Program-made: the position numbers and the translations under genes | The notes under the pieces: generated by a model | Database searches by the model: none | The model's input: the letters and a program-made list of their open reading frames with translations, nothing else | What the model was told of the DNA's origin: nothing | Shown here: one piece after another, positions 1-20,539 of the stretch | Numbering within the stretch: position 1 is the first letter of the stretch | Layout of the letters: the number at the start of each line of letters is the position of its first letter | DNA from: a virus | DNA: 64,000 nucleotides | Virus record (IMG/VR): IMGVR_UViG_3300025684_000010 | Reading direction: 5' to 3' (one strand)

Positions 1-1074
1 AGATGTTGGTACAGGTACGTTTTGAGCGATATGATTCATTTTCTTCAAACCATGTAATAACTCAAAGTTCTCAGGAAAGCCCATCATATGTAAAGCTTCT
101 CGAATTGTTAATGACCTTTCTTCAGTAGGATGCATTGTATCAACCATGTTACGACCAATTACTGCATTCATATATTCGCCAAAGACATGTACTGAACCAT
201 CCCATACACCTTTACCATCAGCAAACTTCATAATGGCATGATCTGAGTATTTGGCGCCTTTTTCGTTTCCTGTTCTGTGGAACCATTCGTTGGCTTCTTT
301 CATCCAACCTTTCTTACAAACATAATTCAGAGTTGTCTTAACGTCCTCTTCAACCATAAGCTCTCGAACATCACGATTTGTTTTTGTCTTAATGAAATTG
401 TAATATGGTTCGTCAGGTACATGCTTATTAATAATCAAATCTTGATGTAATGCGTCAACAGGAATCTCTTGTAAGTATTCAGCAAAGTTCTTTCTTGGTT
501 TATTATACCAATTCATTACAGGAGCAGAGTCAGACTTCCAGCCGATCGCAAAGGTCCTGTCGCGTCCTTGAGGAACTCCGTGGAATCTCGTCGATGTTTT
601 ATATAGGGACAAAGAATAACCCCTCTCAGCGCAAATTTCGTACAGTCTATTTGCTACAGGACGACCTTTATTTGTAAACAATGCAGGAGCATTCTCAACA
701 ATCACTACCTTTGCACCAAGTCTATCAATACCATCTTGAAAGACCATATACATAAATTCGTTCTTAGCACAACCTGCGCCTTTACTCTCTGTAGTTGTTC
801 CTGTATTTAATTGAGATAGAGCAGCACATGGTGGAGTACCAGAGACCACATCAACTTGCGTTAGTCCACTGTTTTCTACTTCATCAAGTTTAATATAAGG
901 AATATCGCGTCCCATTGTATTTTGTTGGTAGTTTACGTAATGACTATCGTTATCCTCAAACCCACCATAAGAGTAGATTGCTGTAGGTGGTTTACCAAAC
1001 GCTCTTTCTGCGCCTAGCATTTGTCCACCGATAAGCGGAATGAGTGGTGCCCATGTTATTTCTTTTTTGTTCAT
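1..1074 (-). CDS. C5-cytosine DNA methyltransferase-like protein (3' end runs off the window; not in the ORF track)
   Basis: Manual translation from ATG at 1074 (MNKKEITWAPLIPLIGGQM...). Motif IV GTPPC, motif VI IVENAP, motif VIII GVPQGRDRTF, motif IX LTIREALHMMGFP, motif X-like IAQNVP. ATGA overlap with the upstream gene. Confidence 0.85.
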   Translation of the reverse strand, partial: MNKKEITWAPLIPLIGGQMLGAERAFGKPPTAIYSYGGFEDNDSHYVNYQQNTMGRDIPYIKLDEVENSGLTQVDVVSGTPPCAALSQLNTGTTTESKGAGCAKNEFMYMVFQDGIDRLGAKVVIVENAPALFTNKGRPVANRLYEICAERGYSLSLYKTSTRFHGVPQGRDRTFAIGWKSDSAPVMNWYNKPRKNFAEYLQEIPVDALHQDLIINKHVPDEPYYNFIKTKTNRDVRELMVEEDVKTTLNYVCKKGWMKEANEWFHRTGNEKGAKYSDHAIMKFADGKGVWDGSVHVFGEYMNAVIGRNMVDTMHPTEERSLTIREALHMMGFPENFELLHGLKKMNHIAQNVPVPTS

Positions 1075-2312
1075 CCGAAAAAATCCTCAAGTGTTGCAGC
1101 TACTTTCTTATCAAATTGCGTTACATCTGGTGCAACATAATCATTATCAATCGCTGTCATAATTTTATTGTTTAAGAATGTACCATCGTAGTATTCAGGT
1201 TTACATATAAGTTTACGTAATCCTGTAATTACCGATTCATACTCCTGTTCATTATTTAATAACCTATTCATCCTTTCTTTAAATTCAGCAGGAGTTTTCG
1301 GTCTTAAAAAATCTGGTATTGGCAAATGCCCCTGTTCATCATAAGATGGATGCAAGAACGGTATCACACCAGCATGTACCATTTCAATATACTTTGAAGT
1401 TACCCAACCTTTTGCGATTGGAATAATAAAAGTAAATTTAACATTATTCATTTTAGCCATTACATCATCAAGATGAATAGATCCTTTGAACCTTGCGTCT
1501 GTTTCGGTATTAGGATGTTCCCATTTACCATAGATCTCAACATCATCATGTTCATCTAATACCCAATCCTTTAATAAATTGTATCTTGAAGGTTTAGCTT
1601 CGTTTAAGATAACCATAAAAGGAACGTTACGATTTAAGTTGAACTGTTCAGTATGTTGATAGTTAATACAGAAACAAGTTTCCATTCCTGCATATGTTGA
1701 AGGCATTGATCTGTCGTAACGATCTTGTTCTTCGTAAGATTTAATACTACTTACTTTATATTCATAATCGTATTGACCTAAAGATATATTTGGTAAATTG
1801 AATATGTCTCTTGATTGATTCATAACATACCGAGGATCGTTTACAATTTCAACATAATCAGGATTCTCTTCGTTAATCCAAATCGCAATTGGTGATGTAT
1901 AATTCTTTGTCATATCAATCACAGAAGCTTTAAGTGTACGATCTTTAACTTGTTCAATTTTGCCTGGGATCGTAACTGTACCAACTTGACCAACCATTAA
2001 AACAGTATAGTCTAATTTCATTGACCTACTCTTAAAGTAATCAATCACGTGATTAAAGAATCTATCTTCATCGTTGTTTTTAATACCTTTCCAAATATCA
2101 ATTACATTATCAAAGGGAAACAACTCCAATGATTCAGACTCATTTAGAGTACTGAAATCAGATCGTCCGATAATGTAAAATGTTTTGTCTGGGTTATTAT
2201 TTGCGAGTGCAATAAGTACTGTAGACGGCTCGTTGTCTCCACCAATAGGAGAGAAGCGATTCCGCTTAAACTTGACCGATTTACCGATCTTTCCAAATCC
2301 AATGTTTTTCAT
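1071..2312 (-). CDS. GT-B fold DNA glycosyltransferase, T4 beta-glucosyltransferase-like
   Basis: C-terminal half (VEIYGKW...FKGSIHLDDVMAKMNN..FTFII...VTSKYIEM..AGVIPFLHPSYD) follows the pattern of the T4 BGT C-terminal domain; lies near a gp42 homolog. Confidence 0.55.
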   Translation of the reverse strand: MKNIGFGKIGKSVKFKRNRFSPIGGDNEPSTVLIALANNNPDKTFYIIGRSDFSTLNESESLELFPFDNVIDIWKGIKNNDEDRFFNHVIDYFKSRSMKLDYTVLMVGQVGTVTIPGKIEQVKDRTLKASVIDMTKNYTSPIAIWINEENPDYVEIVNDPRYVMNQSRDIFNLPNISLGQYDYEYKVSSIKSYEEQDRYDRSMPSTYAGMETCFCINYQHTEQFNLNRNVPFMVILNEAKPSRYNLLKDWVLDEHDDVEIYGKWEHPNTETDARFKGSIHLDDVMAKMNNVKFTFIIPIAKGWVTSKYIEMVHAGVIPFLHPSYDEQGHLPIPDFLRPKTPAEFKERMNRLLNNEQEYESVITGLRKLICKPEYYDGTFLNNKIMTAIDNDYVAPDVTQFDKKVAATLEDFFG

Positions 2313-2339
2313 AATATAAAGTTTGCCGTTCTGTTAAAT

Positions 2340-2774
2340 TTATTTATCCGAATTGACCACACGTTGTCTGAGCTCTGACGAACTGAAAGAATGCCTTCTG
2401 CGATTATAATGAACAGGACATAAACCTTTTCCAGTATGCTCAACATCTTTGTATTCTTCACCAACAATTCTAATATCAGGATTGATAGTCAAAATCATAT
2501 CAACCAATTCTTGTTCAGTTGAGAAAGGTATTACCTCGTCTACATATTTACAAGAAGATAACTGTATGTATCTTTCAAATGGAGTCTGAACTGGTTTGTT
2601 CTTTGCATTAGGACGATCCACGGTTGGGTCAATCAATAATCCAACAATTAAATAATCGCACAACGTCTTTGCTTCTTGTAGCATTACAATATGACCTGCA
2701 TGAAACAGATCAAACGTTGAACATGTAAATCCGACCTTACAATCTGCCGGTAATTTTTTCCTATCTAGAAACAT
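2340..2774 (-). CDS. Cytidylyltransferase, TagD/glycerol-3-phosphate cytidylyltransferase-like
   Basis: TFDLFHAGH (HxGH), CDYLIVGL, CKYVDEVIP and the C-terminal SSSELR signature. Confidence 0.85.
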   Translation of the reverse strand: MFLDRKKLPADCKVGFTCSTFDLFHAGHIVMLQEAKTLCDYLIVGLLIDPTVDRPNAKNKPVQTPFERYIQLSSCKYVDEVIPFSTEQELVDMILTINPDIRIVGEEYKDVEHTGKGLCPVHYNRRRHSFSSSELRQRVVNSDK

Positions 2775-3681
2775 TTTCTTCCCTCAAAATTTCTTTAACT
2801 CGTTTAGCATACACCGTATAGAGTGGTGTTTTATCAGTTGGTAGATAATGTATATATGCAGGGAAGGTTTTAAAATTTAACACTGCGTCGAGTTTTAGAA
2901 CCGTAGTCCAAATACGTACGTCACTACCAAACCTGCTTACCTCAAATCCATTCTCTGATAACCATTTATAATAAATTGCATATATGTTTTGTTCTATACA
3001 CCAAAACTTTCCACCCATAGATCGGTTATTACCTGGAGTTCCATACTTTGGTATAACAGAACCACCATAACCTTTTTTGTTTTTATACTTGTGTACACCT
3101 TCCATAATAAGAACATACATATCTTTACAAGCTGCTCTTTTAAAGAACTCAAGATAATGATCGTTTCTTGTATGTACAACCTGACCAGAATTCATACTAA
3201 AATAAGGTTTGGTTCTCATTGTAGTAATATCAACCTTATCTTTATAAATTGGATCAAGTACTGCTTCTACAAACTTACCCATAACACCTAATGCAGATTC
3301 GTTATAGAATACATAAGGTTCAAAGAAATAGTGGTCAACAGGCTTGAGTAATAACGTATCGTCATCAATCATCATTGCTCTGTTGATGTTTAATATTTCA
3401 TGTGCATAAGGAAAGACCAACCATTTGATTGCCACTCCATATACATCAAGTATTCGTAACAACCACTCTTCATCAAAGAAATGCTTTACTTTATCAATCA
3501 CATCAGTTACATAGTGAATTGTTATCTTATCTGATATACTTTCTACGTTATAGGTAGTATGCCGATCATCTAAGATAACATGCAAATTCATATATGTATC
3601 TTCGTCGTATACATTATACATCTCAAGAAGGTTTTCAATCCTTGAGATTTTATTGCTTACTATGAATATATCATTCTGCAT
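2761..3681 (-). CDS. GT-A fold (GT8-like) nucleotide-diphospho-sugar transferase
   Basis: MMIDDDTLL DxD motif, FSMNSGQVV, IEQ and IHY motifs. Start moved to MQNDIF (3681). Confidence 0.6.
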   Translation of the reverse strand: MQNDIFIVSNKISRIENLLEMYNVYDEDTYMNLHVILDDRHTTYNVESISDKITIHYVTDVIDKVKHFFDEEWLLRILDVYGVAIKWLVFPYAHEILNINRAMMIDDDTLLLKPVDHYFFEPYVFYNESALGVMGKFVEAVLDPIYKDKVDITTMRTKPYFSMNSGQVVHTRNDHYLEFFKRAACKDMYVLIMEGVHKYKNKKGYGGSVIPKYGTPGNNRSMGGKFWCIEQNIYAIYYKWLSENGFEVSRFGSDVRIWTTVLKLDAVLNFKTFPAYIHYLPTDKTPLYTVYAKRVKEILREENVSR

Positions 3682-4717
3682 AGTCGATAATATCCAATAG
3701 ATCGTTAACACACTGAATGATAAAGTCTTTATCTGGGTGGTACTTGTATACTCGAATCACTTCGGCAGCTGTTAGCGTTAACAACTCATACTTATCTATC
3801 CAATGATTATATGCCAACATTGTATTAATCACAAGATCTTGAGTATGACTATCATAACGATTGATTATTAAACTTGCGATAAACTTTGCTATGTCAAGTT
3901 CACGACAACCAAATACATTAGGAATAGGATCAATTAAGTACATTGTGTCACTGTCATTAAACAGCATGTTCTTAATACCAAAATCTCCATGACAATAACC
4001 ATACTCTAATTCAATAGAAGATAGTCTTTCAACAACATCATTAAAAGGTTCAAGGTTAGCATTAGTACAGTGATTTACGATTCTTGCTATATAATCATCA
4101 AAGGTTAGAAACTTTGTTTCGATTGGCATATTACCAAAAGCATCAAGAGCTTCTTGAATTAACGCCAATGCTTTATAAGGACTGTCTTCGAAGAAATTAG
4201 GATCGTTTTCAATATAATCCATTGTAATCGTATCACCAACCACTCGATGAATCTCAGGTGTACATACTGCCCAACCGGTTTTCTCATACCAAAGTGCGGC
4301 TTCATGAGCATTCTTTGCTGTCTTGTGAACAAACTTACCGTCGGTGTAAATGTCAGAGCCTGATAGGCCACCTTCCAATTCACGAATATCAGCCTCTACA
4401 AAATCTTCAGGTGTAATACCTTTGTCGTCAATGTAATATGCTGCGAGTGGTTTATTAAAACTGAGTGCATGGTACTTTACGTTATTCTTTTGTAACCACG
4501 ATTCAATTTGAGGTCCATACTTATCTGCAGCTTCTTCTCTACTCCTACAAGAAATAGATCCACGAGCTGTATATATGTCGATAGTCCAACCTTGATTATA
4601 TAGTTCATTACACTTTTCAATTAGAGCAACGTTGGGTTTTGCGTTATCCCAATCTCTATTTGATGTAAATGCTAGAGTGTCATCAAAGTCAAGGACTATT
4701 CTTTTATGTGACGACAT
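3671..4717 (-). CDS. Fusion of a HAD phosphatase (capsule-biosynthesis type) and an APH/choline-kinase-like phosphotransferase
   Basis: N-terminal LDFDDTL, YTARG, YIDDK; C-terminal HGDFGIKN, LIDP and DIAKF. Confidence 0.8.
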   Translation of the reverse strand: MSSHKRIVLDFDDTLAFTSNRDWDNAKPNVALIEKCNELYNQGWTIDIYTARGSISCRSREEAADKYGPQIESWLQKNNVKYHALSFNKPLAAYYIDDKGITPEDFVEADIRELEGGLSGSDIYTDGKFVHKTAKNAHEAALWYEKTGWAVCTPEIHRVVGDTITMDYIENDPNFFEDSPYKALALIQEALDAFGNMPIETKFLTFDDYIARIVNHCTNANLEPFNDVVERLSSIELEYGYCHGDFGIKNMLFNDSDTMYLIDPIPNVFGCRELDIAKFIASLIINRYDSHTQDLVINTMLAYNHWIDKYELLTLTAAEVIRVYKYHPDKDFIIQCVNDLLDIIDYAE

Positions 4718-4719
4718 AA

Positions 4720-4923
4720 TTAGTCCTTCTTAAAATAAATGCTACGAGTTAGTCCACCAAAGAGGTAGGTGAAGTATAAGAAGAATGGAGCCGCAATTAC
4801 GAGTCGTATTGTATCAGAAGTTGCACCAACCAATTCACCGAGACCGATGAGAGCTGAGATTAATCCAATAATTAACACGACGGTTGCTACGCCAAATCCA
4901 AAGTCTTTCAATTTTTCTTTCAT
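4720..4923 (-). CDS. Small two-TM membrane protein
   Basis: Two hydrophobic segments; first gene after the promoter at 4951-4979. Confidence 0.55.
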   Translation of the reverse strand: MKEKLKDFGFGVATVVLIIGLISALIGLGELVGATSDTIRLVIAAPFFLYFTYLFGGLTRSIYFKKD

Positions 4924-4950
4924 AATATAGTTTCCTTGTTAATATTTACT

Positions 4951-4979
4951 ATTATAACAAATTTTTGTGCAGTTGTCAA
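4951..4979 (-). promoter_or_regulatory. Sigma70-consensus early promoter
   Basis: TTGACA-N17-TATAAT on the minus strand; heads the HAD/GT/CTase/BGT/MTase operon. Confidence 0.8.
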
Positions 4980-4983
4980 TAGT

Positions 4984-5436
4984 TTATTTAGCCAATCTGA
5001 AATCTGTTTCAAATTTACATCCTGACTCAATAAAGAGTTGTTTTGACTTATCATACGATTCTATCCATCTTTGAGGAACATCTTCTGCAGCCATTACAAT
5101 TCTATTTATGCCAACTTGGATAATTCCTTTTGCACATTCATTACAGACAGGTAAACCCCACACGTATATTGTTGTATCTTTTAACGATACTCCATGAAAG
5201 GAGGCATTGAAGATTGCATTCATTTCAGCATGCACAACGAGTTCGTATTTCAGTTCTCTATTGTTATACTTATCTGCTGAATCATCAATACCTTTAGGAA
5301 AGCCATTATAACCAGTTGCTAGGATACGTTTATCTTTTACAATAACCGCTCCTATTTGTTTACTTGGATCTTTTGACCAACTTGAAACTTCTCGGGCAAC
5401 TCGTATAAATCTTTGATCCCATTTATTTTCCTGCAT
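4984..5436 (-). CDS. cd: dCMP deaminase
   Basis: SKDPSKQIGAVIV, GYNGFPKG, HAEMNA and PVCNECAK zinc motifs. Confidence 0.92.
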   Translation of the reverse strand: MQENKWDQRFIRVAREVSSWSKDPSKQIGAVIVKDKRILATGYNGFPKGIDDSADKYNNRELKYELVVHAEMNAIFNASFHGVSLKDTTIYVWGLPVCNECAKGIIQVGINRIVMAAEDVPQRWIESYDKSKQLFIESGCKFETDFRLAK

Positions 5437-6091
5437 TAATTAACGCCTCAATAAATTCAAAATGTCTTTCATATACATGAAGATTAGTTGCAGTCCAAAT
5501 CAAGTCACCGACCTCAACTTCGAGATCATAAGCAAGTTGACCTTGAACAAACTTTGCCCAAGCAACATCATTGTTATAACCAAAGACAGCATCGTTAGAT
5601 CTCATTACATAATGGGATATAAGTTTACCATCTCGAATCATAAACGTATTCGCAAATGTACACATAAAGTCAGACATACCATCACGGTTGAAATCAAGAT
5701 GCATACTTGGACGATTATAGATCATTGCAGCTCTACGGCTGTTTGGATTAGCTTTCAACTCTCGAAGTACATGTTTATATTGATTACCATTCTCTTCAGA
5801 GTAAATACACCAACCATAATTAGAATTGATCTTACCTTCGTTAGAAGATATATCTTTCCAAATCTGTGGTGTCTCTCCAGGAATATCATCAACATATAGT
5901 GATTCAGACATATACCACTCAAGTTCACGCTCGATGTACTTATATGCTGGTGTTCTAATCAACCAATTTTCATCAGCAACAAATGATTCACCAAGAACTT
6001 CAATAGTCTTAGCGCCTGACTTGTCAATGACATAATCTTCTGCAAGATACTTGTCAATTAGGTCTGCTCGGATATCATTTGTTGTTTTCAT
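5423..6091 (-). CDS. 42: dCMP hydroxymethylase (T4 gp42 homolog)
   Basis: Close match to T4 gp42 as I recall it: DKSGAKTIEVLGESFVADE, RELEWY, DIPGETPQIW, INSNYGW, DGMSDFMCT, RSNDAVFGYNND (Asp at the cytosine-specificity position), LHVYERHF. Confidence 0.9.
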   Translation of the reverse strand: MKTTNDIRADLIDKYLAEDYVIDKSGAKTIEVLGESFVADENWLIRTPAYKYIERELEWYMSESLYVDDIPGETPQIWKDISSNEGKINSNYGWCIYSEENGNQYKHVLRELKANPNSRRAAMIYNRPSMHLDFNRDGMSDFMCTFANTFMIRDGKLISHYVMRSNDAVFGYNNDVAWAKFVQGQLAYDLEVEVGDLIWTATNLHVYERHFEFIEALINAGK

Positions 6092-6345
6092 TAGATGGAT
6101 TCCATTAACGCTTCAATATCAGATACTTCTGCAATTAGATCAGAAACATTTTGATTATGGAAAGCTCTTGCGGTTTTCCTTAGGATTGATTTTGGGATCT
6201 GAACTTCATCAGCCAAAGCATTGATTGCTTCTTTCTGAAAATCACGTTCTGATTCCATTCGAGTAAACGAATTACTCATTTCTTCCATACAACCACGGAT
6301 TCGTTTTTTGTCTGCGTCACTTGACGGTATCATTATATTGCTCAT
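6091..6345 (-). CDS. Small helical dsDNA-binding protein (T4 DsbA/GapR-like)
   Basis: Size and pattern (EAINALADEVQIPKSILRKTARAFHNQN) resemble the DsbA family. Confidence 0.45.
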   Translation of the reverse strand: MSNIMIPSSDADKKRIRGCMEEMSNSFTRMESERDFQKEAINALADEVQIPKSILRKTARAFHNQNVSDLIAEVSDIEALMESI

Positions 6346-6689
6346 TATTTAGTACTCCTGTTAAATACATCTTTAGTTGAATCCTGACCTTTAATACCTT
6401 GACGACAGTAAGAGACAAAGAAACTTGAATAGTTAATTAAATCTTTTGCTGAATCTTCAAGGGACTCAAAGTTAGGATCGTAATCATCTGACTGCATTGC
6501 TTCCATTACTGATTTCATACGTAGCATTTTTGCATGCATAATATCATGAATGGTTGTAATTCCGTTAGGATAGTAGTCAGCTTGTTGAACAGTCGAGTTT
6601 GGATTTTGATAATCTCTCGACTTTTTCAATTGAAGGTCAACACACTCTTGTAGTACATCGACCGAAACTGGGTTGGTTGGTTTTGTCAT
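6345..6689 (-). CDS. Nucleotide-modification-associated domain 1 (Nmad1/DUF1599-like) protein
   Basis: LQLKKSRDY...KMLRM...FESLEDSAKDLINYSSF pattern of this all-alpha family; adjacent to gp42. Confidence 0.6.
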   Translation of the reverse strand: MTKPTNPVSVDVLQECVDLQLKKSRDYQNPNSTVQQADYYPNGITTIHDIMHAKMLRMKSVMEAMQSDDYDPNFESLEDSAKDLINYSSFFVSYCRQGIKGQDSTKDVFNRSTK

Positions 6690-6712
6690 ATAGACTCCAT
6701 AATAAAAAATAT

Positions 6713-6741
6713 ATTATATCAAAGATTCTTGATAATGTCAA
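6713..6741 (-). promoter_or_regulatory. Sigma70-consensus early promoter
   Basis: TTGACA-N17-TATAAT upstream of Nmad1-dsbA-42-cd. Confidence 0.8.
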
Positions 6742-6757
6742 TGGAAATTTCGTATAC

Positions 6758-7303
6758 TCATCGGTTTTTTTCCATAGCAACGTCTTTGAAGTTGTTATGT
6801 TCTATTATACCATACTTTTCTACAGATGTAAATAGTTTTTTCTTACTATTGTAACGAATCCATAAAGAACGATTAACTTTTGGTTTGCCTTCCTTTGTTG
6901 TCATCATAGTTTTTACAACAGCTTTTGGTATAAAGAAGTAATGTAATTTTTCTGTGTCAGGGTTAACAACAACCGCTCGGATAGCACCTTTCTTTAAGAC
7001 ACCGTCATGAGATCTTACGCTTGAGAGTTCGGCTGAACTGCTCTTGGCCGATATGTGTAATGTACCCGTTTTGGATTCAGATTCATCTGTGAAGTCTTCG
7101 TGGATACCGTCGTTGAATTCGTATAGACCATTTGAGCAGAGAGCGAACGATTGTTCTATTAAATGTTCTAGGTTAAAATCCGCAGGCCGTTGTAGAACAG
7201 CCTCACGGAAAGGACTTTCTTTATAGACTGGGTGGTTTTCAACAACGCAGTCTGCCATCAGTTTCAATTTAAGGTTTGTGTTGACCTTTTCATAATATGC
7301 CAT
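6758..7303 (-). CDS. Hypothetical protein, possible PD-(D/E)xK nuclease fold
   Basis: EHLIE...DFTDESESKT resembles an E...D...(D/E)xK arrangement; has its own promoter. Confidence 0.4.
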   Translation of the reverse strand: MAYYEKVNTNLKLKLMADCVVENHPVYKESPFREAVLQRPADFNLEHLIEQSFALCSNGLYEFNDGIHEDFTDESESKTGTLHISAKSSSAELSSVRSHDGVLKKGAIRAVVVNPDTEKLHYFFIPKAVVKTMMTTKEGKPKVNRSLWIRYNSKKKLFTSVEKYGIIEHNNFKDVAMEKNR

Positions 7304-7335
7304 AATGTAAGTCCATTAATTTAAATTATAGATAT

Positions 7336-7364
7336 ATTATAATCTATATCATAAAGAATGTCAA
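7336..7364 (-). promoter_or_regulatory. Sigma70-consensus early promoter
   Basis: TTGACA-N17-TATAAT. Confidence 0.8.
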
Positions 7365-7381
7365 TGGTTTATTTCAGTTAT

Positions 7382-7468
7382 TTAGAGAACTTTTCTCCAA
7401 ACGTTCTGAATTCTGTTCCTTTTCATCATATGATGGAACTTTTTGTATTGTTTTGCTATGTATTTCAT
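7382..7468 (-). CDS. 28-aa basic peptide (MKYIAKQYKKFHHMMKRNRIQNVWRKVL)
   Basis: Manual translation; AGGAAGGA Shine-Dalgarno just upstream. Confidence 0.5.
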   Translation of the reverse strand: MKYIAKQYKKFHHMMKRNRIQNVWRKVL

Positions 7469-7549
7469 GTTTCCTTCCTGTTGCCTACATGTTACAGTAA
7501 TGTAACATATAAATTTATATATACAAGAACTACTAACAAAATCAATAAT

Positions 7550-7777
7550 TTATACAACTTTTGGTGGAACTGGTAATAGAAACGTTCTTACTGTTGCCAA
7601 TTTATCTTCGGCTTCGGCAAGTTTTGCGACTTCAGCATCAAGAGTTTCAACTGTACCAGGATGTTCTGCTACTCCAACTCCATTCTCTAAAAATACCGCA
7701 ATGTTTGCTGTATGTTCTGCAATGGCTGCTTCATACCTTGAAACTAACGCATTAACTAATATTTCTCTAATTGCCAT
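7550..7777 (-). CDS. Hypothetical helical protein
   Basis: ORF track, with start moved to MAIREIL after a GGAG RBS. Confidence 0.6.
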   Translation of the reverse strand: MAIREILVNALVSRYEAAIAEHTANIAVFLENGVGVAEHPGTVETLDAEVAKLAEAEDKLATVRTFLLPVPPKVV

Positions 7778-7778
7778 T

Positions 7779-8192
7779 TTACTCTCCTTTAAGTTTTGGT
7801 AGGATACCATGATTGCCTTCATGAGATGGAGCCGTCCATCCTTCAGGTTTCATCAAGTCAGGTAATCCTAGTGGGTTTGGCCGTCCTTCCTTTACTCCAG
7901 GTTCTTTGGCCATGTTTGCTTCGAGAACTGCGTCCCAAGCTTTATAAGGATCGACTCCGAAGGCATCAAGAGTACCGATTGCCACTACACAAAGGTCAAC
8001 TAAACCATCAACGATTTCTTCGGAGTCGATATCTTTTTGAGCTGTTCTTGTTTCTTCGAGTTCTTCTTGTAGGAAGTTAACTCTAAATTCCAAAAACGCT
8101 TTCAACTTTTCCACATCTGCGTTTGCTACCCAGTTGTGTGTTTTATATTTTGATTGCATATCAACAATATCTTTTACCCAATCCTTACTCAT
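7779..8192 (-). CDS. MazG-like/all-alpha NTP pyrophosphohydrolase (candidate dCTPase/dUTPase)
   Basis: FLQEELEE...EIVDGLVDL acidic motifs, VLEANMAK, DLMKPEGW. Confidence 0.75.
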   Translation of the reverse strand: MSKDWVKDIVDMQSKYKTHNWVANADVEKLKAFLEFRVNFLQEELEETRTAQKDIDSEEIVDGLVDLCVVAIGTLDAFGVDPYKAWDAVLEANMAKEPGVKEGRPNPLGLPDLMKPEGWTAPSHEGNHGILPKLKGE

Positions 8193-8753: not shown

Positions 8754-11312
8754 TTAACTAAAAAAGTCATCGAGAGTATTAACCTTCTCCGCTGACCATC
8801 CAACCGCATCAAGGATTGACTGTATGGGACTCAAGAATACTTTGTCAAACTGAAGTTCAGTATCAACGTAATCGTGTAGTCCAAGTTGTTTTGGCAATAA
8901 GCCAGGAACCGATATTGCGTTCTCACGAATAGGATTAGGTACCTTTAAATATAATAACTTGACTTTGTCTCCACCTTGGATAGTTTCAAACTTCTTGTCA
9001 AGTCCTTTCTCTTTAAGGAAGTGGTTATACATTAAGGATCCACGAACATGCATTGGAGTACCTTTTCTGTATATAGATCCTTTGTCTTGGTACTTCTTAA
9101 GTTCATTAACACCCGAGGTCTTTGCGATGGCCATAGGATCTAATGTACGAAACAGTTCTTTGAAATCTTTAATGAAACCTTGAGTTGTTTCTTCATCAGT
9201 ATTCATAATGATCTCAAAACATTGCTTGAGTTTATCACGACAGATCTCAGGAGTCGAAGATCTTACTGATTCTAATCCTGTTACCGATACCTTAGGAGTA
9301 TCGTAGTGAACGCCTTCTGAGTTCAATGTATTTAGAATATATCGTTTCTTAGCAACAAAGATTGCTCGGTTAGTAATCTTTTCACGTTTCATTACCATTG
9401 CGTTACGATATGTACCTAGATCAGCAGCAAGCTTTTCATAACCATCTTCGATGACTTGTTCAATTTTAGTTGAACAGATTCTATCAAGGAACTCTTCACC
9501 TTTATCTTTATCAATATCAGTCGTACCAAACACTTCTTTAATCAGAGGACCGAAGTCAACATAGATAGAGTCGGTATCAATATAGATGATATAGTCATGG
9601 TCAGTTGTACCTAGAGTTCTATTTAAATAATCATTAACCGACTTTTCAGCATAACGAATACCTAACTGACCGCTTGTTGTAATTGCCTCGGCCATTTCAT
9701 TAATATAGTATAAGAAATATTTGTTAGCAGTAGCACCATACAAACTGTTCATGGCAATCTTAATTGACATTTGTGAATTGTGTAATTGATTGATCTCACG
9801 CTTTAGGCGTTTGAGTTCTCTTGGATCTGTCTCAACCTCAAACTGTTGTTCAGCAAGGATCATCTGCTTTTTGATAACAGAACGGTTATTATAGTATTCA
9901 TCAATAATTTCAGGAATGATTCCTTGCTTCTTATTTGAAAAACAAACACCGTTAGCAGCCACTGATACATTAGGACGATCATTCTTATATTCACGATTCA
10001 GTACCATGTCTTGAGTCACGTATTCACGATCATTGGGCATATAGGTTTCTGGTGACATGTTATATTGTAACATTAAGTGAGGGTATAGAGAGTTAAGGTC
10101 AAAAGATACAACCCAAGGATGCATTCCAACTTTAGGATCTTTAACATAACCACCAACAAGATCACCAGCAACCATTCCTGGTCCACCTTTAAGTGGAGGA
10201 ACAATTTTATCTTTCATTAGTTTACGATATATGGTTGATTCCCATATACCAACTGTACCAAACGCATCACCGTAGTTAACACCACCGTCATATGCAACTG
10301 TCATAACCAACGCAAGCAATCCTGTCTCTTCTTCGAGACGAGCAATCAGTTGAGTATCTTTTAAATTATAGTCAAGATACAATTGAGGATTCTCTTCCCA
10401 TAATCCAGTTAACGAACCATATTCAGAGTAATCAATTTTCTTTTCACCAAGGACAGCGTAAGCAATATGATCTAACTTATACGATTCTTGAGGACCGTAC
10501 TTATAACCAAACTTTTTAAAGCAATCCATATAATCGAGAACAACAACACCCATAATACGATATGTTGATGCAACCTTACCAAAGATCTCTCGAGAGGTTT
10601 GTTTTAATGATTTGTGTGGAGATAAACGCTTTGTGGTTTCTTCTCCAAGTAACGCGGTGATACGAGTTACGATGTATTGAATATCAAAGTATTCAACGTT
10701 CCAACCAGTTACAACATCAGGATAATCAGTTGTCCATAGTTTCATAAAGTATTGAAGTAAAGCACGTTCACCATCAATACCATCAAACAATACGAACTCA
10801 ATCTTATCTTGAGGAATATCAGTAACAGTTTTAGTCTTGTCATAATCTTTGCGACCAAGTACATAATATACATCATCTCGAGAACTATGATAAGCAATAG
10901 ACGTAATCGGTTTATCGGCAGTGTCCATATTTGGATAACCATCACTGATGTCAACCTCAATATCAAACGATACGATATTGACCTGGCTTACGTCATATGT
11001 AATCTTACCAGGATACTCTTCTTGAATAAACTGAGTTACATAATTTGTTGAACCAAACGTCTTCATACCGTGAACACCTTTGTATTCTTCGATGAAGTTC
11101 TTTGCTTCTCGCATATCACCAAACTTGTGTGGAGATACAGGTAAGTTACCTTCTAACGAATGGAAACCTTCTGCACCAGACTTTGGAGTATGAATGTATA
11201 GAGTAGGCTGAAATGGAACGCGGTACGAGAAACGTTTACCATTTTCGTAACCTCGATGTAAAATATTGTTTCCGTATCTTTCAACGGATGTATAGAATTT
11301 AGTCAATGCCAT
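8754..11312 (-). CDS. 43: Family B DNA polymerase (gp43)
   Basis: Exo I FDIE, GWNVEYFD, SFDLNSLYP, KIAMNSLYG, YIDTDSIY; C-terminal PIP-like TLDDFF. Confidence 0.97.
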   Translation of the reverse strand: MALTKFYTSVERYGNNILHRGYENGKRFSYRVPFQPTLYIHTPKSGAEGFHSLEGNLPVSPHKFGDMREAKNFIEEYKGVHGMKTFGSTNYVTQFIQEEYPGKITYDVSQVNIVSFDIEVDISDGYPNMDTADKPITSIAYHSSRDDVYYVLGRKDYDKTKTVTDIPQDKIEFVLFDGIDGERALLQYFMKLWTTDYPDVVTGWNVEYFDIQYIVTRITALLGEETTKRLSPHKSLKQTSREIFGKVASTYRIMGVVVLDYMDCFKKFGYKYGPQESYKLDHIAYAVLGEKKIDYSEYGSLTGLWEENPQLYLDYNLKDTQLIARLEEETGLLALVMTVAYDGGVNYGDAFGTVGIWESTIYRKLMKDKIVPPLKGGPGMVAGDLVGGYVKDPKVGMHPWVVSFDLNSLYPHLMLQYNMSPETYMPNDREYVTQDMVLNREYKNDRPNVSVAANGVCFSNKKQGIIPEIIDEYYNNRSVIKKQMILAEQQFEVETDPRELKRLKREINQLHNSQMSIKIAMNSLYGATANKYFLYYINEMAEAITTSGQLGIRYAEKSVNDYLNRTLGTTDHDYIIYIDTDSIYVDFGPLIKEVFGTTDIDKDKGEEFLDRICSTKIEQVIEDGYEKLAADLGTYRNAMVMKREKITNRAIFVAKKRYILNTLNSEGVHYDTPKVSVTGLESVRSSTPEICRDKLKQCFEIIMNTDEETTQGFIKDFKELFRTLDPMAIAKTSGVNELKKYQDKGSIYRKGTPMHVRGSLMYNHFLKEKGLDKKFETIQGGDKVKLLYLKVPNPIRENAISVPGLLPKQLGLHDYVDTELQFDKVFLSPIQSILDAVGWSAEKVNTLDDFFS

Positions 11313-11369: not shown

Positions 11370-13082
11370 TTATTGTACTAACTCCGAGAAGTTCTTGATT
11401 TTCTCAAACTTGAGGTTGTTCTCAAACTTTTCAGCGAACTGATCACCACGATGCGATATCACAAAGATGTTGTCATCGTTATTCAATCCATGTAGTGTTT
11501 CAATCAAACTTTCAATACCAACTCCATCCAATGCACCATCGAGTGTTTCGTCAAGTATCAATAGGTTAGTTGAAACGGAGGATCTCAGTTTAGCAACTGA
11601 TCTCCAAGCCAACATGATTGATAGTGTGATACGTAGTTTCTCACCTTCGGAAAAACTAGCATAGGTGAACTTGTCTCTGAACCTTGAACGTATTACTTCA
11701 TTAAACTCTTCGTCAAGTTGAAAGTCAACGAACAGATCAAACGCAGCAAGATACTTGTTGATAAGTTTATTAATTACAGGAATGTACTGAGAAATAATCT
11801 TTGCCTTGATACCACCGTCTCTCAATATCAATTGAACAATATTGAGTACCTCATGTTCATCAAGAAGTTCAGTACGACTTGCAGTTAGCTTATCTATTCT
11901 CTTTTGTAGATTCTCAAGTTTAGAAGTATCAATTTCAGCAACTTCCTTTTGAGCATTATCAAGTTCCTTTTTATAACTCATTAGAGCATTCTTGGACATT
12001 TTGATTTCAGCTCGGATCTCAGAGATCTTAAAGTTAACTGATTGAATCTGTTCTTCGATTTTTGAGATAGAACCTAAACGAGTCTGATGTTTTGTAAGTA
12101 CGTCTGCTATTTCAACAAGACCTTTCTCAATCTTAGCCTTCTGTTGATTCTTATCTATAATTTGTTCTTGTTTAAAGTCGTGGGCAATACCCTGCTTACA
12201 TGTTGGGCAATCATCATTGTGTTCGTAGAACGATAGTTCCTTTTCAAACGCAACACGAGATCTTTCAAGTTCAGCTCTCTTTTCGGTTGCATCAGAGAAC
12301 TTTTTCTTTTCTTCAGGTTTATCAGAGATATCGTCGTAGAGTACTTTTATAATCTCATCTTGAGAATCAATAGTACTATTCTTAGTTTCTATATCATCGA
12401 TATGACCACTCATCTTTTCTTTGATCTTATCAACTTCAATAGATTTTAGATTACGTATTGCTTCATCGCTTTCTTCTTGAGATACGATTTTGCTCTCAAC
12501 CATTTCTATTTCGTATTTGTTTTCGTTAATATCAGTCTTGATACTTGACATACGTTCTTTTGCCAATGTACCCATAACAGAGAATACTTGAATATCCAAT
12601 AGGTCTTCGATAATCTCTCGACGTTGATATGCTCTCAATTCCATAAAAGGAATATAAGTAGCAGAACCAAGTACTACGATTTGATTGAATGCTTTAAAGT
12701 TGATACCTAGAATATCGTCTTCGAGGAATCCTTGATAGTCTCGAATAGATGCATCTTTATTAATCATTGCACCATTCTTCCATATCTCAAAGAGATTAGG
12801 TTTGATACCACGAAGGATTTTGTACTTATCACCACCTGCTGTAAAGTATAATTCTATAATGAGTTCTTTATTATTAATAGAGTTAACAAGCTGTGCTTTG
12901 TTGATATTACGAAAAGGTCGGCCGTATAGACCAAATACAATTGCATCAAGCAATGTACTTTTACCTGAACCATTTGATCCTGCGATCAATGTACTAGGAA
13001 CTTGATTTAGTTCAACTGTTGTAAATACGTTTCCTGTCGATAGTATGTTTTTATATTTAACCTTCTCAAAGTTAATTCTCAT
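11370..13082 (-). CDS. 46: Recombination endonuclease ATPase subunit (Rad50-like)
   Basis: Walker A GSNGSGKS, CPTC zinc hook, FSEGEK signature, LILDE, ISH. Confidence 0.95.
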   Translation of the reverse strand: MRINFEKVKYKNILSTGNVFTTVELNQVPSTLIAGSNGSGKSTLLDAIVFGLYGRPFRNINKAQLVNSINNKELIIELYFTAGGDKYKILRGIKPNLFEIWKNGAMINKDASIRDYQGFLEDDILGINFKAFNQIVVLGSATYIPFMELRAYQRREIIEDLLDIQVFSVMGTLAKERMSSIKTDINENKYEIEMVESKIVSQEESDEAIRNLKSIEVDKIKEKMSGHIDDIETKNSTIDSQDEIIKVLYDDISDKPEEKKKFSDATEKRAELERSRVAFEKELSFYEHNDDCPTCKQGIAHDFKQEQIIDKNQQKAKIEKGLVEIADVLTKHQTRLGSISKIEEQIQSVNFKISEIRAEIKMSKNALMSYKKELDNAQKEVAEIDTSKLENLQKRIDKLTASRTELLDEHEVLNIVQLILRDGGIKAKIISQYIPVINKLINKYLAAFDLFVDFQLDEEFNEVIRSRFRDKFTYASFSEGEKLRITLSIMLAWRSVAKLRSSVSTNLLILDETLDGALDGVGIESLIETLHGLNNDDNIFVISHRGDQFAEKFENNLKFEKIKNFSELVQ

Positions 13083-14141: not shown

Positions 14142-14720
14142 TTACTCCTGGGTGGCAGATTTTTCTTGTTCGGCTTTTGCGTTGTCTATTGCTGCTTGGG
14201 CGCGTGCGATATAAGCTGTCATTTGGTTTCTTTGCTTTGTAATTTTTTTCTTCTTCTTTAATGCTCTATCCCATTTGAGTTGAGATACTTTCTGAGAAAA
14301 TACAACTCCATGTAGGTGGTCAAATTCATGTAAGAAACATCTTGCGGTATAACCTTCAAAGTTTCCGGTTTGTGGATTACCATCTTCATCATACCACGAA
14401 GCTTCAACGGATGTTGGTCGATGCATTTTGAGAAACACATCAGGGTAGGTAAGACATCCTTCAAAGTCAAGTTCTGTTTCTTCCGAGACAGATAGGACTT
14501 TAGGATTAACGAACATCATTGTATTCTCTTTGTCTTCACCGATAATAAACACTTTATAATCAATACCAACTTGAGAAGCAGATAACCCTAGACCTCTTTT
14601 GGAGACCATCAGCTCTACCATATCTTCCTTGGTTTGCTTTAAATCAATCTGTGGATTTTTGATGTCAACATCTTGTAATTCTTTAAATAGAATTGGATCC
14701 TTTGTAGATACTAATTTCAT
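14142..14720 (-). CDS. def: Peptide deformylase
   Basis: GLGLSASQVG, EGCLT and HEFDH motifs. Confidence 0.93.
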   Translation of the reverse strand: MKLVSTKDPILFKELQDVDIKNPQIDLKQTKEDMVELMVSKRGLGLSASQVGIDYKVFIIGEDKENTMMFVNPKVLSVSEETELDFEGCLTYPDVFLKMHRPTSVEASWYDEDGNPQTGNFEGYTARCFLHEFDHLHGVVFSQKVSQLKWDRALKKKKKITKQRNQMTAYIARAQAAIDNAKAEQEKSATQE

Positions 14721-19649: not shown

Positions 19650-20378
19650 TTATTCGTTGGTGATGTATACCATGAATGCACAACACTGATCCCAATTACC
19701 TTCGTTTAACCATCGGTCATTGTAGGCTAAGGCTTCGTGTTTCTTATCCATCCATCGTACTTTTTTGAATTGCGGCAATAACGTATCTCTGACCTTCATC
19801 CATTGTTTTGCAGCTCCACCATAACAGCTTAAGTGAAACTCTACTGCCATGTGTTTAACATTTGTAGTTAGATATTCCATATTGATTTCAGTGAATACAC
19901 CGTACTCTCCACCTTCACAATCTATTTTGAGGTAATCAATTTTTGGTATATTATAATCAACCACAAGATCGAGAAAAGACATTCTTTTAAACTCTCGATA
20001 TTCTGAAAAGACATTATTAAAATGGTTTGACGTTGATCCTATGCCTGCTTCGATAGGAATGACAGGAGTAGTACTATTGTCAATATAATGATCCGAAATA
20101 TTTTGGATAAGAGTTTTGAGATGAGGCCTAGAAGGTTCGATAGCAAATATACGAGAAGCTTTACGGTCAAGAGCATGACAGACAAAGAAACCAACACAGG
20201 CACCAATATCAACAACCACATCACCTTCTTCAACATCTCTCCACCACTTGTAATCCATTCTGTGAAAGAATTCAATAAATTGCGCGTTAACATCTGGTAG
20301 AGGTAACCCGTCCGTTTTTAAATTCAAATTAAGATACTTGTTAGTATCCATTCTTTCGTAATCTTCTTTTCTACTCAT
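19650..20378 (-). CDS. FkbM-family methyltransferase
   Basis: VVDIGACVG, FAIEP, YLKIDCEGGE, AVEFH. Start moved to MSRKED. Confidence 0.82.
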   Translation of the reverse strand: MSRKEDYERMDTNKYLNLNLKTDGLPLPDVNAQFIEFFHRMDYKWWRDVEEGDVVVDIGACVGFFVCHALDRKASRIFAIEPSRPHLKTLIQNISDHYIDNSTTPVIPIEAGIGSTSNHFNNVFSEYREFKRMSFLDLVVDYNIPKIDYLKIDCEGGEYGVFTEINMEYLTTNVKHMAVEFHLSCYGGAAKQWMKVRDTLLPQFKKVRWMDKKHEALAYNDRWLNEGNWDQCCAFMVYITNE

Positions 20379-20539
20379 CACCAATGCCTTATTGTATTTG
20401 CCATAATAAAGAAACACGTTAAAAAGTTTACACCAACAATAATCGTTCGTAGCAACATAACATAATCGTCATAGGGCTCTGTCTTATCGTCAGAGAAACC
20501 ACCTAATGCGTATTTCCATATCAATTTAAGTTTATTCAT
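20378..20539 (-). CDS. 53-aa membrane peptide (MNKLKLIWKYALGGFSDDKTEPYDD...)
   Basis: Manual translation; TGATG coupling to the FkbM gene. Confidence 0.6.
   Translation of the reverse strand: MNKLKLIWKYALGGFSDDKTEPYDDYVMLLRTIIVGVNFLTCFFIMANTIRHW

Follow-up and report, generated by a model that had tools for sequence, protein, structure and literature searches.

The first 8,192 positions of a 64,000-nt stretch of viral DNA (IMG/VR record IMGVR_UViG_3300025684_000010; the whole stretch is referred to as the window) harbor a minus-strand locus for the hypermodification of cytosine. Its gene content suggests, with moderate confidence, that the phage coats 5-hydroxymethylcytosine (hmC) with a sugar that it activates itself, most likely a heptose, which would serve nuclease evasion. 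The window derives from the genome of a T4-like phage (it encodes gp43, gp46/47, a late sigma factor and a topoisomerase), and the phage is taken as marine on the basis of its cultured relatives and metagenome-assembled genomes, the close relatives being IMG/VR contigs. The sugar genes are one allele of a swappable cassette, set in a constant frame of genes for the dCMP 5-hydroxymethylase gp42, a dCMP deaminase and a C5-cytosine methyltransferase-like (MTase-like) protein. The system is described here as a combination of the T4 route to hmC, a published heptose-type kit and an optional second transferase.

The published kit is that of contig 53, a cluster of subclass III (Pyle, Lund, O'Toole and Saleh; bioRxiv 10.1101/2023.12.21.572611; Cell Rep 43:114631), which encodes a bifunctional HAD/APH enzyme, a CTP transferase and a GT-B fold glycosyltransferase resembling T4 beta-glucosyltransferase (BGT). 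In Escherichia coli, this triad yielded heptosyl-hmC (5-HepmC, 449 u) and di-heptosyl-hmC (5-di-HepmC, 641 u), and all three enzymes were required (Pyle et al.). A HAD+APH fusion, a CTP-transferase-like enzyme and a BGT-like GT-B enzyme also occur together in the window, which was likened to contig 53 by architecture, length and fold rather than by sequence. Since the triad already makes heptosyl-hmC in E. coli, the system would be a variant of a known anti-restriction strategy.

The base itself is predicted to be hmC from the residues of the thymidylate synthase (TS) homologue, a gp42 orthologue (5423–6091). This protein matches the T4 gp42 structure with an E-value of 7e-71, compared with 3e-14 for the enzyme of PDB entry 9iqu, whose active-site stretch matches RB69 gp48. 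In E. coli numbering, it has L143D and N177D, and carries C146 and D169. According to Lee et al. (PMC13326640), N177D goes with the use of dCMP, an acidic residue at position 143 with hydroxymethylation, and D169N with the synthesis of 5-hydroxy-dCMP. Sequence comparison revealed D169N in RB69 and DLP2, whereas the window enzyme keeps Asp, and the D143, D169 and N177D signature therefore points to hmC. A hydroxymethyluracil pathway is ruled out by N177D, and 5-hydroxycytosine of the RB69 gp48 type by the kept D169. According to Pyle et al., GT-B matches often adjoin ThyS. The locus also encodes a dCMP deaminase (4984–5436; PF00383, E-value 5e-22), and deaminases of this kind cluster with dCMP-type synthases in modified-cytosine contigs. 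A MazG-like (all-alpha) nucleotide pyrophosphatase (7779–8192; PF01503, E-value 1.6e-9; PHROG 671) is a probable dCTP/dUTP remover by analogy with T4 gp56. Both genes fit the removal of dCMP and dCTP, as judged from their presumed substrates. The gp42 orthologue would thus supply hydroxymethyl-dCMP, while the MazG-like enzyme and the deaminase would lower dCTP, and we strongly infer that the phage replicates hmC-DNA.

The sugar donor would be made by two proteins of the operon that follows. The N-terminal HAD phosphatase domain (AfhF/EcbF-like, residues 1–110) of an HAD–kinase fusion (3671–4717) matches PDB entries 9iqw (E-value 1e-13) and 1xpj (E-value 2e-10), the latter being the fold match given for AfhF orthologues (PMC13326640). 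It shares 34% identity with the DLP2 AfhF homologue, and the fusion protein also has a weak match to the kinase loop of AfhE. The DxD motif, as well as the HGD motif and the later Asp of APH-like kinases, is invariant in 64 HAD–kinase homologues; at 90% identity, the family comprises 303 clusters. In HY126, a kinase, an HAD enzyme and a pyrophosphorylase convert a sugar-5-phosphate to a nucleoside diphosphate (NDP)-sugar (PMC13326640). By analogy with AfhE/AfhF and contig 53, the window enzymes may form a similar route, in which the APH-like kinase would add a phosphate to C1 of a sugar phosphate from the host, the HAD domain would strip the distal phosphate, and an HldE-like enzyme would join the resulting sugar-1-phosphate to a nucleotide. 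As a side observation, locus L238 has the HAD–kinase, a PF01467 gene, an epimerase-like open reading frame (ORF) and two glycosyltransferase genes adjoining genes that look structural; neither a synthase gene nor an MTase-like one lies within 6 kb.

The last enzyme of this route is an HldE/TagD-type sugar-1-phosphate nucleotidyltransferase of 144 aa (2340–2774; PF01467, E-value 3e-15; PHROG 7878, E-value 1e-31). A first-pass annotation, made from the sequence alone, had called it a CDP-transferase. Its best profile is instead heptose-1-phosphate adenylyltransferase (TIGR02199, 76.8 bits, versus 52.2 bits for TagD, TIGR01518), both scores lying below the curated cut-offs (181.5 and 165.4 bits, respectively), so that the assignment holds at the level of the superfamily; a CDP-activated donor is possible. 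The PDB matches of this protein include ethanolamine-phosphate and glycerol-3-phosphate cytidylyltransferases, and choline kinases are found among APH-like kinases, which would suit a CDP-alcohol donor of the TagD/LicC type (glycerol, ribitol or choline phosphate) and transfer of a phospho-alcohol to hmC. Such a donor is nevertheless very unlikely: its synthesis would have no use for the phosphatase, which the bisphosphate route to NDP-sugars does require; the heptose profile outscores TagD; and the acceptor enzyme is BGT-like. Moreover, the donor module is exchanged for one of the NDP-sugar pyrophosphorylase kind. In relatives, the HAD–kinase and HldE-like pair is replaced by an AfhE-like protein with a free HAD enzyme beside the same GT-B gene, even at 82% GT-B identity (L237 versus L071), and both modules therefore appear to make a nucleotide-sugar donor for the GT-B enzyme.

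With a nucleotide sugar as the donor, the origin of the sugar phosphate has to be considered. No SIS or SIS_2 isomerase was detected at the locus (the window being a part of the genome) or in related records, one of them 99% complete, and a scan of 20 other large ORFs of the window yielded no isomerase, deoxynucleoside monophosphate kinase or oxygenase. A GT-A/SIS fusion (P0130) was judged to be an assembly chimera, as a single 1.3-kb contig with ~1x coverage. The lack of an isomerase in related records suggests that the host probably supplies the sugar phosphate, and the heptose would most likely be drawn from the host pool of heptose-7-phosphate. E. coli makes ADP-heptose itself, yet the enzymes of contig 53 were required there; thus, the phage donor probably differs from ADP-heptose in nucleotide or anomer.

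The putative DNA glycosyltransferase (1071–2312; 413 aa) was assigned by its predicted fold and its C-terminal, clamp-binding-like tail. Its model (predicted local distance difference test score, pLDDT, 93) is nearest to T4 BGT (Z 22.1, root-mean-square deviation 3.5, 307 residues aligned), followed by PglH (Z 19.1), T4 alpha-glucosyltransferase (AGT; 18.1) and the HY126 transferase (16.4). Identity to T4 BGT is 13%; the sequence has no Pfam match (PF09198 included), and its profile found none among PDB sequences. The family comprises 283 clusters at 90% identity. The alignment to BGT reaches residue 390; in GT53, GT66 and GT94 (429, 419 and 419 aa), a 25-aa tail follows the aligned part, which extends to residues 404, 395 and 390 (Pyle et al.). 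The motif L-[DE]-x-F-F ends the GT-B enzyme and the gp43 DNA polymerase (8754–11312), the reference for tail comparison, and no other of the 176 window ORFs; it is retained in 99 of 120 GT-B homologues. Structure prediction of the clamp with this tail scored 0.47 against 0.15 for the best control (runs with at least 45% contact agreement and partner pLDDT of at least 41). Of 80 solved pairs, 58 reached the mark used for such predictions, as did 2 of 110 mismatched ones; seven of the solved pairs and both mismatches did so at ≤0.60. The complex of the RB69 clamp with the polymerase peptide has already been solved, and the score may for that reason reflect likeness; the prediction lends weak support to clamp binding. 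Of the T4 enzymes, AGT binds the clamp gp45 and BGT does not (PMC13216743). Held at the fork by its tail, the GT-B enzyme would place the sugar on the hydroxymethyl group.

A second transferase gene (2761–3681) encodes a GT-A protein, as the first-pass annotation had proposed, and the call rests on the predicted fold (pLDDT 87; WbbM, Z 15.7; glycogenin, 14.3; LgtC, 13.5). It has no Pfam, PHROG or NCBIfam match, its likeness to GT8 is at the level of the fold, and its DDD motif is invariant. The gene is optional in its slot: it is present in 24 of the 42 close loci spanning the slot, and in several loci lacking it, the HAD–kinase ends in the last residues of the GT-A protein, which indicates a clean indel. 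For contigs 14 and 43, enzymes resembling GT8 that attach a second sugar to DNA have been described (Pyle et al.), and the GT-A enzyme probably adds one here. That both transferases act on virion protein or host surface polymers instead of DNA is most improbable: the GT-B enzyme is closest to BGT and bears the tail of the polymerase, and its slot is occupied in other phages by AGT-like, TAGT or BGT-like DNA transferases. For the GT-A enzyme alone, action on protein or surface polymers is a minor but real possibility, as its nearest folds work on lipopolysaccharide, glycogen and proteins, and it is optional and lacks the clamp tail; the enzymes of contigs 14 and 43 argue against this as well. 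In relatives, a conserved 289-aa GT-A-like ORF with weak Pfam matches only (L008:5885-6754) lies past what corresponds to the left edge of the window, between exonuclease and clamp genes.

Taken together, the evidence supports the proposal of the first-pass annotation that hmC is modified with a group activated by the phage itself, perhaps through two transferases, and a heptose is the preferred identity of the sugar. Several points weigh against this reading. The likeness to contig 53 was drawn from architecture, length and fold rather than from sequence. GT53 was classed as GT4-like with BshA as its top match (Pyle et al.), whereas the window model has BGT first. GT94, a GT-B enzyme of similar size, adds 3-deoxy-D-manno-octulosonic acid (Kdo) (Pyle et al.), and thus the GT-B fold does not fix the sugar. 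Homologues of the GT-B enzyme (31% identity) are found in Enterococcus phages, and the HAD and kinase domains are homologous to enzymes of the arabinose pathway. To our knowledge, Enterococcus hosts are not known to make heptose. The window is a part of the genome, so further genes may lie elsewhere. In addition, a single-nucleotide-polymorphism context test gave no trace of site-specific methylation.

Some of these points would suit the same pathway with a different sugar, be it a pentose (ribose, or arabinose drawn from the arabinose-5-phosphate pool of the host) or some other one; the product would then be a glycosyl-hmC not yet described. The HAD domain is an AfhF homologue, the alternative donor module is AfhE-like, the GT-B family spans Gram-positive hosts, and the lack of SIS/SIS_2 isomerases in related records would admit any host sugar phosphate. 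This alternative is nonetheless unlikely, as the sole tested cluster of exactly this architecture gave heptose in E. coli, a host that also makes arabinose-5-phosphate, and in the arabinose phages the base is 5-hydroxycytosine (D169N), with an isomerase and unrelated transferases taking part. Heptose accordingly stays the preferred sugar.

The variability of the sugar genes was seen in loci gathered by the MTase-like gene alone (~30–35% identity to that of the window), which are related and do not represent independent events. Their constant order is gp42, deaminase, a variable cassette and the MTase-like gene. Among the 34 loci that include 7 kb of upstream sequence, 32 have the synthase, an association that spans at least seven sugar cassettes, and all 54 synthases neighboring MTase-like genes carry D169 and N177D (hmC-type). 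The cassette may hold a GT-B or AGT-like enzyme with either donor module, an AGT-like enzyme alone or with an epimerase and UDP-glucose dehydrogenase, TAGT alone, a transferase with UDP-galactopyranose mutase, or an inositol-phosphate synthase with HMUDK-helical and BGT-like proteins; in other loci, there is none. The link between the sugar genes and gp42 supposed in the first-pass annotation is borne out by this neighborhood comparison, in which the genes do co-occur. No TET/5mYOX gene was found among the locus neighbors and no PF12851 (Tet_JBP) match in five related records, and a TET-linked copy of the triad was sought without success. Enterococcus and gut phages have the GT-B and donor genes without the MTase-like gene in the stretches fetched; therefore, sugar transfer seems not to need it.

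Among individual loci, Enterococcus phages 9183 and Planchet and Agathobaculum phage AB434P2 (L002:8782-14794, L004:1314-5582) share the D169/N177D synthase, donor enzymes and a GT-B enzyme of the window family, AB434P2 having the HAD–kinase and PF01467 architecture of the window. The cultured Pseudoalteromonas phage vB_Psh_XG4 (L001:100-6580) carries gp42, HAD, AfhE-like, GT-B (44%), second glycosyltransferase and MTase-like (52%) genes, and is proposed as a bench model for the system. In L210:1043-4859, the same slot contains genes for myo-inositol-1-phosphate synthase, a small putative HAD protein, an HMUDK-helical (aGPT-Pplase-like) protein and a BGT-like protein; the cassette recurs in L130, L134, L138, L169, L190, L200, L204, L206 and L213, and may put inositol on hmC, a base of which we know no example. 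In L173:957-1970, L179 and L182, UDP-galactopyranose mutase, epimerase and transferase genes lie beside the hmC-type synthase, making furanosyl-hmC a candidate product. A literature search on the modification of phage 9183, on HY126 and on a link between the MTase-like gene and gp42, which covered few subscription papers, yielded nothing new.

The MTase-like gene (1–1074; PF00145, E-value 3.5e-24) is the least explained part of the locus, and belongs with gp42 in the constant hmC frame, not with the sugar kit. It is truncated by the window edge, with 358 of ~408 aa inside; a full-length member of the family is encoded at L006:5023-6249. The family comprises 432 clusters at E < 1e-30. The classical C5-MTase motifs IV, VI and VIII are present, and a comparison of 138 homologues, each taken from a different 50% cluster, shows no change at Cys83, Glu127, Arg171 or Arg173, but the S-adenosylmethionine (SAM) motif I and the motif II acid are absent. 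Motif I reads P-L-x-G-G (P13 in 96% and L14 in 97% of homologues), F-x-G-x-G-G is found in none of 150 homologues, and the motif II acid is not conserved. In motif X, a Gln (Q351, 99%) precedes the Asn found at the position of M.HhaI N304 in 97% of homologues. In near-identical relatives, the protein ends in a clamp tail, as do only 28 of 150 distant homologues. In L073:12237-12446, the codon for the catalytic Cys is interrupted by a group I intron (RF00028, 111 bits), so that two ORFs are called; the MTase-like gene of L074 (about 11515-11780) is split in the same codon. Dinucleotide ratios are flat (0.92–1.09), and synonymous transitions show no strand-symmetric excess at cytosines after purines.

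Replacement of cytosine by hmC would leave a plain methylase little substrate. Our best guess is that the protein travels with the clamp and acts on C5 of those cytosines that have not been replaced. SAM-dependent methylation of such leftover cytosine has a nearly even chance of being correct, and is helped by the fact that the only C5-MTase gene of phage S-TIM5 is of this family. A SAM-free reaction is a lesser but tangible possibility, in which the Cys–C6 adduct would add formaldehyde to leftover cytosine, remove the hydroxymethyl group at selected sites or exchange the hydroxyl of hmC. Such reactions of C5-MTases are known in vitro. The remodeled motif I and missing motif II acid beside fully conserved catalytic residues, the tracking of gp42 in 32 of 34 informative loci and the lack of Tet_JBP in the five records speak for it, as does the intron in the catalytic Cys codon of one relative, which is expected of an expressed and needed gene. 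On the other hand, the family retains the Asn of motif X as well as the GG pair, and the homologue of S-TIM5, with the same motifs, is that phage's only PF00145 gene. Cytosines after purines are reportedly methylated in S-TIM5. Action on host DNA or base flipping without catalysis is a somewhat weaker option. It is likewise doubtful that the family is a SAM-independent, clamp-riding C5 enzyme performing a core, so far unrecognized hmC step in marine T4-like phages, with the cassette adding an undescribed disaccharide of heptose and a GT8-added sugar.

All of the ORFs named in the first-pass annotation (MazG, Nmad1-like, gp42, deaminase and kit genes) were located on the minus strand where it had placed them, the match of the Nmad1-like protein being weak. 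Its promoter at 4951–4979 is a perfect sigma-70-type sequence with an extended −10 (12/12 for TTGACA-17-TATAAT, with the TG extension). The operon content it listed is correct except that the actual first gene, a 67-aa hydrophobic ORF (4720–4923) present in most close relatives, was omitted; the description of nearly all genes as translationally coupled agrees with downstream spacings of +2, −11, −14, +27 and −4 nt. Three further perfect promoters, at 6741, 7364 and 8748, all on the minus strand and intergenic, mark upstream transcription units; loose promoter sites show no excess in the window (41 versus 37.9 in shuffles). The first of the three (6713–6741; 12/12 with TG) precedes the Nmad1-like gene (6345–6689; PF07659, E-value 0.024, below the cut-off; PHROG 18404, E-value 2e-13), a conserved 84-aa ORF (6091–6345) coupled to this gene and gp42, gp42 itself and the deaminase. 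The Nmad1-like gene is kept beside gp42 in relatives. A 181-aa ORF (6758–7303), possibly a restriction-type nuclease, has no family match, but an Atlas lead connects it to Bsp6I-like clusters (score 0.92); in close relatives, its slot is filled by different ORFs, of which one has a PD-(D/E)xK-like motif. The 181-aa protein might cleave cytosine-containing host DNA, as does T4 endonuclease II. Elsewhere in the window, a peptide deformylase and a methyltransferase-like ORF (PHROG 8156) are found amid replication genes (14142–14720 and 19650–20417).

The present analysis adds counts for the constant frame, a catalog of the cassettes that it contains and the finding that the altered motifs of the MTase-like gene extend over its whole family. 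If the heptose assignment is true, heptosyl-hmC, so far seen only upon reconstitution in E. coli, would be a genome-wide base in an abundant group of marine phages. The slot between the deaminase and MTase-like genes would amount to a natural library of interchangeable DNA sugars, suggestive of an arms race with modification-dependent nucleases. The main puzzle is the MTase-like gene, which nearly always travels with the hmC frame; its family would allow one to ask directly whether the SAM-free reactions of C5-methyltransferases take place in nature.

Comparison with known systems places these findings in context. The CmoX carboxymethyltransferase (PMC12783734) is likewise a phage C5-MTase fold with non-standard chemistry, but its motif X carries Arg and its SAM pocket is intact; identity with CmoX is ruled out by the Asn that the window family keeps there, and CmoA/CmoY were not noticed in the loci, no search having been aimed at them. 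The 'DNA methylase' gp080 of S-TIM5 is 30% identical and shows the same changes in motifs I and X, and 2.4 kb from it lies a TS homologue with D169 and N177D, although S-TIM5 is of an unrelated lineage and has neither the clamp tail nor an adjoining sugar kit. That 'thymidylate synthase' (L069:4757-5593), the only PF00303 match of the record, combines N177D with a non-acidic residue 143, the signature of a dCMP methylase. The T4 glucosyl-hmC system (gp42, gp56, cd, alpha-GT and beta-GT) has in common gp42 (~52% identity), the deaminase, the pyrophosphatase, the BGT fold and a clamp-linked transferase, but it uses host UDP-glucose and has no donor enzymes or MTase-like gene. The Afh pathway of arabinosyl-5-hydroxycytosine (RB69, DLP3, HY126 and LC53; PMC13326640) also leads to an NDP-sugar through a kinase, an HAD enzyme homologous to that of the window and a nucleotidyltransferase, at a locus beside polymerase and TS homologue genes. 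In the window, by contrast, the base is predicted to be hmC (D169 kept), no arabinose-5-phosphate isomerase was found at the locus or in related records, the transferase is of the HldE type (PF01467) instead of the PF00483 type, the kinase is fused to HAD, the AfhE fusion of NTP-transferase and kinase is replaced (AfhE-like proteins occur only in relatives), and the GT-B enzyme is nearer to BGT than to the HY126 enzyme. The first-pass annotation had not recognized the gene set and supposed that it may produce an undescribed base; the view that the set is undescribed is not supported: the kinase–phosphatase–nucleotidyltransferase logic is that of AfhE/AfhF, GT8-like second-sugar enzymes have been described, and the triad has the make-up of contig 53. 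Contig 53 shares with the window the HAD/APH enzyme, the CTP-transferase-like enzyme, a BGT-like GT-B enzyme of similar length with a 25-aa tail and hmC as the acceptor, and no isomerase is named among its required enzymes. It was, however, chosen for its pair of C5-methyltransferase and 5mYOX/TET genes, which makes its hmC post-replicative, whereas the hmC of the window would come from gp42, no TET gene having been found, and the window has an extra GT8-like enzyme.

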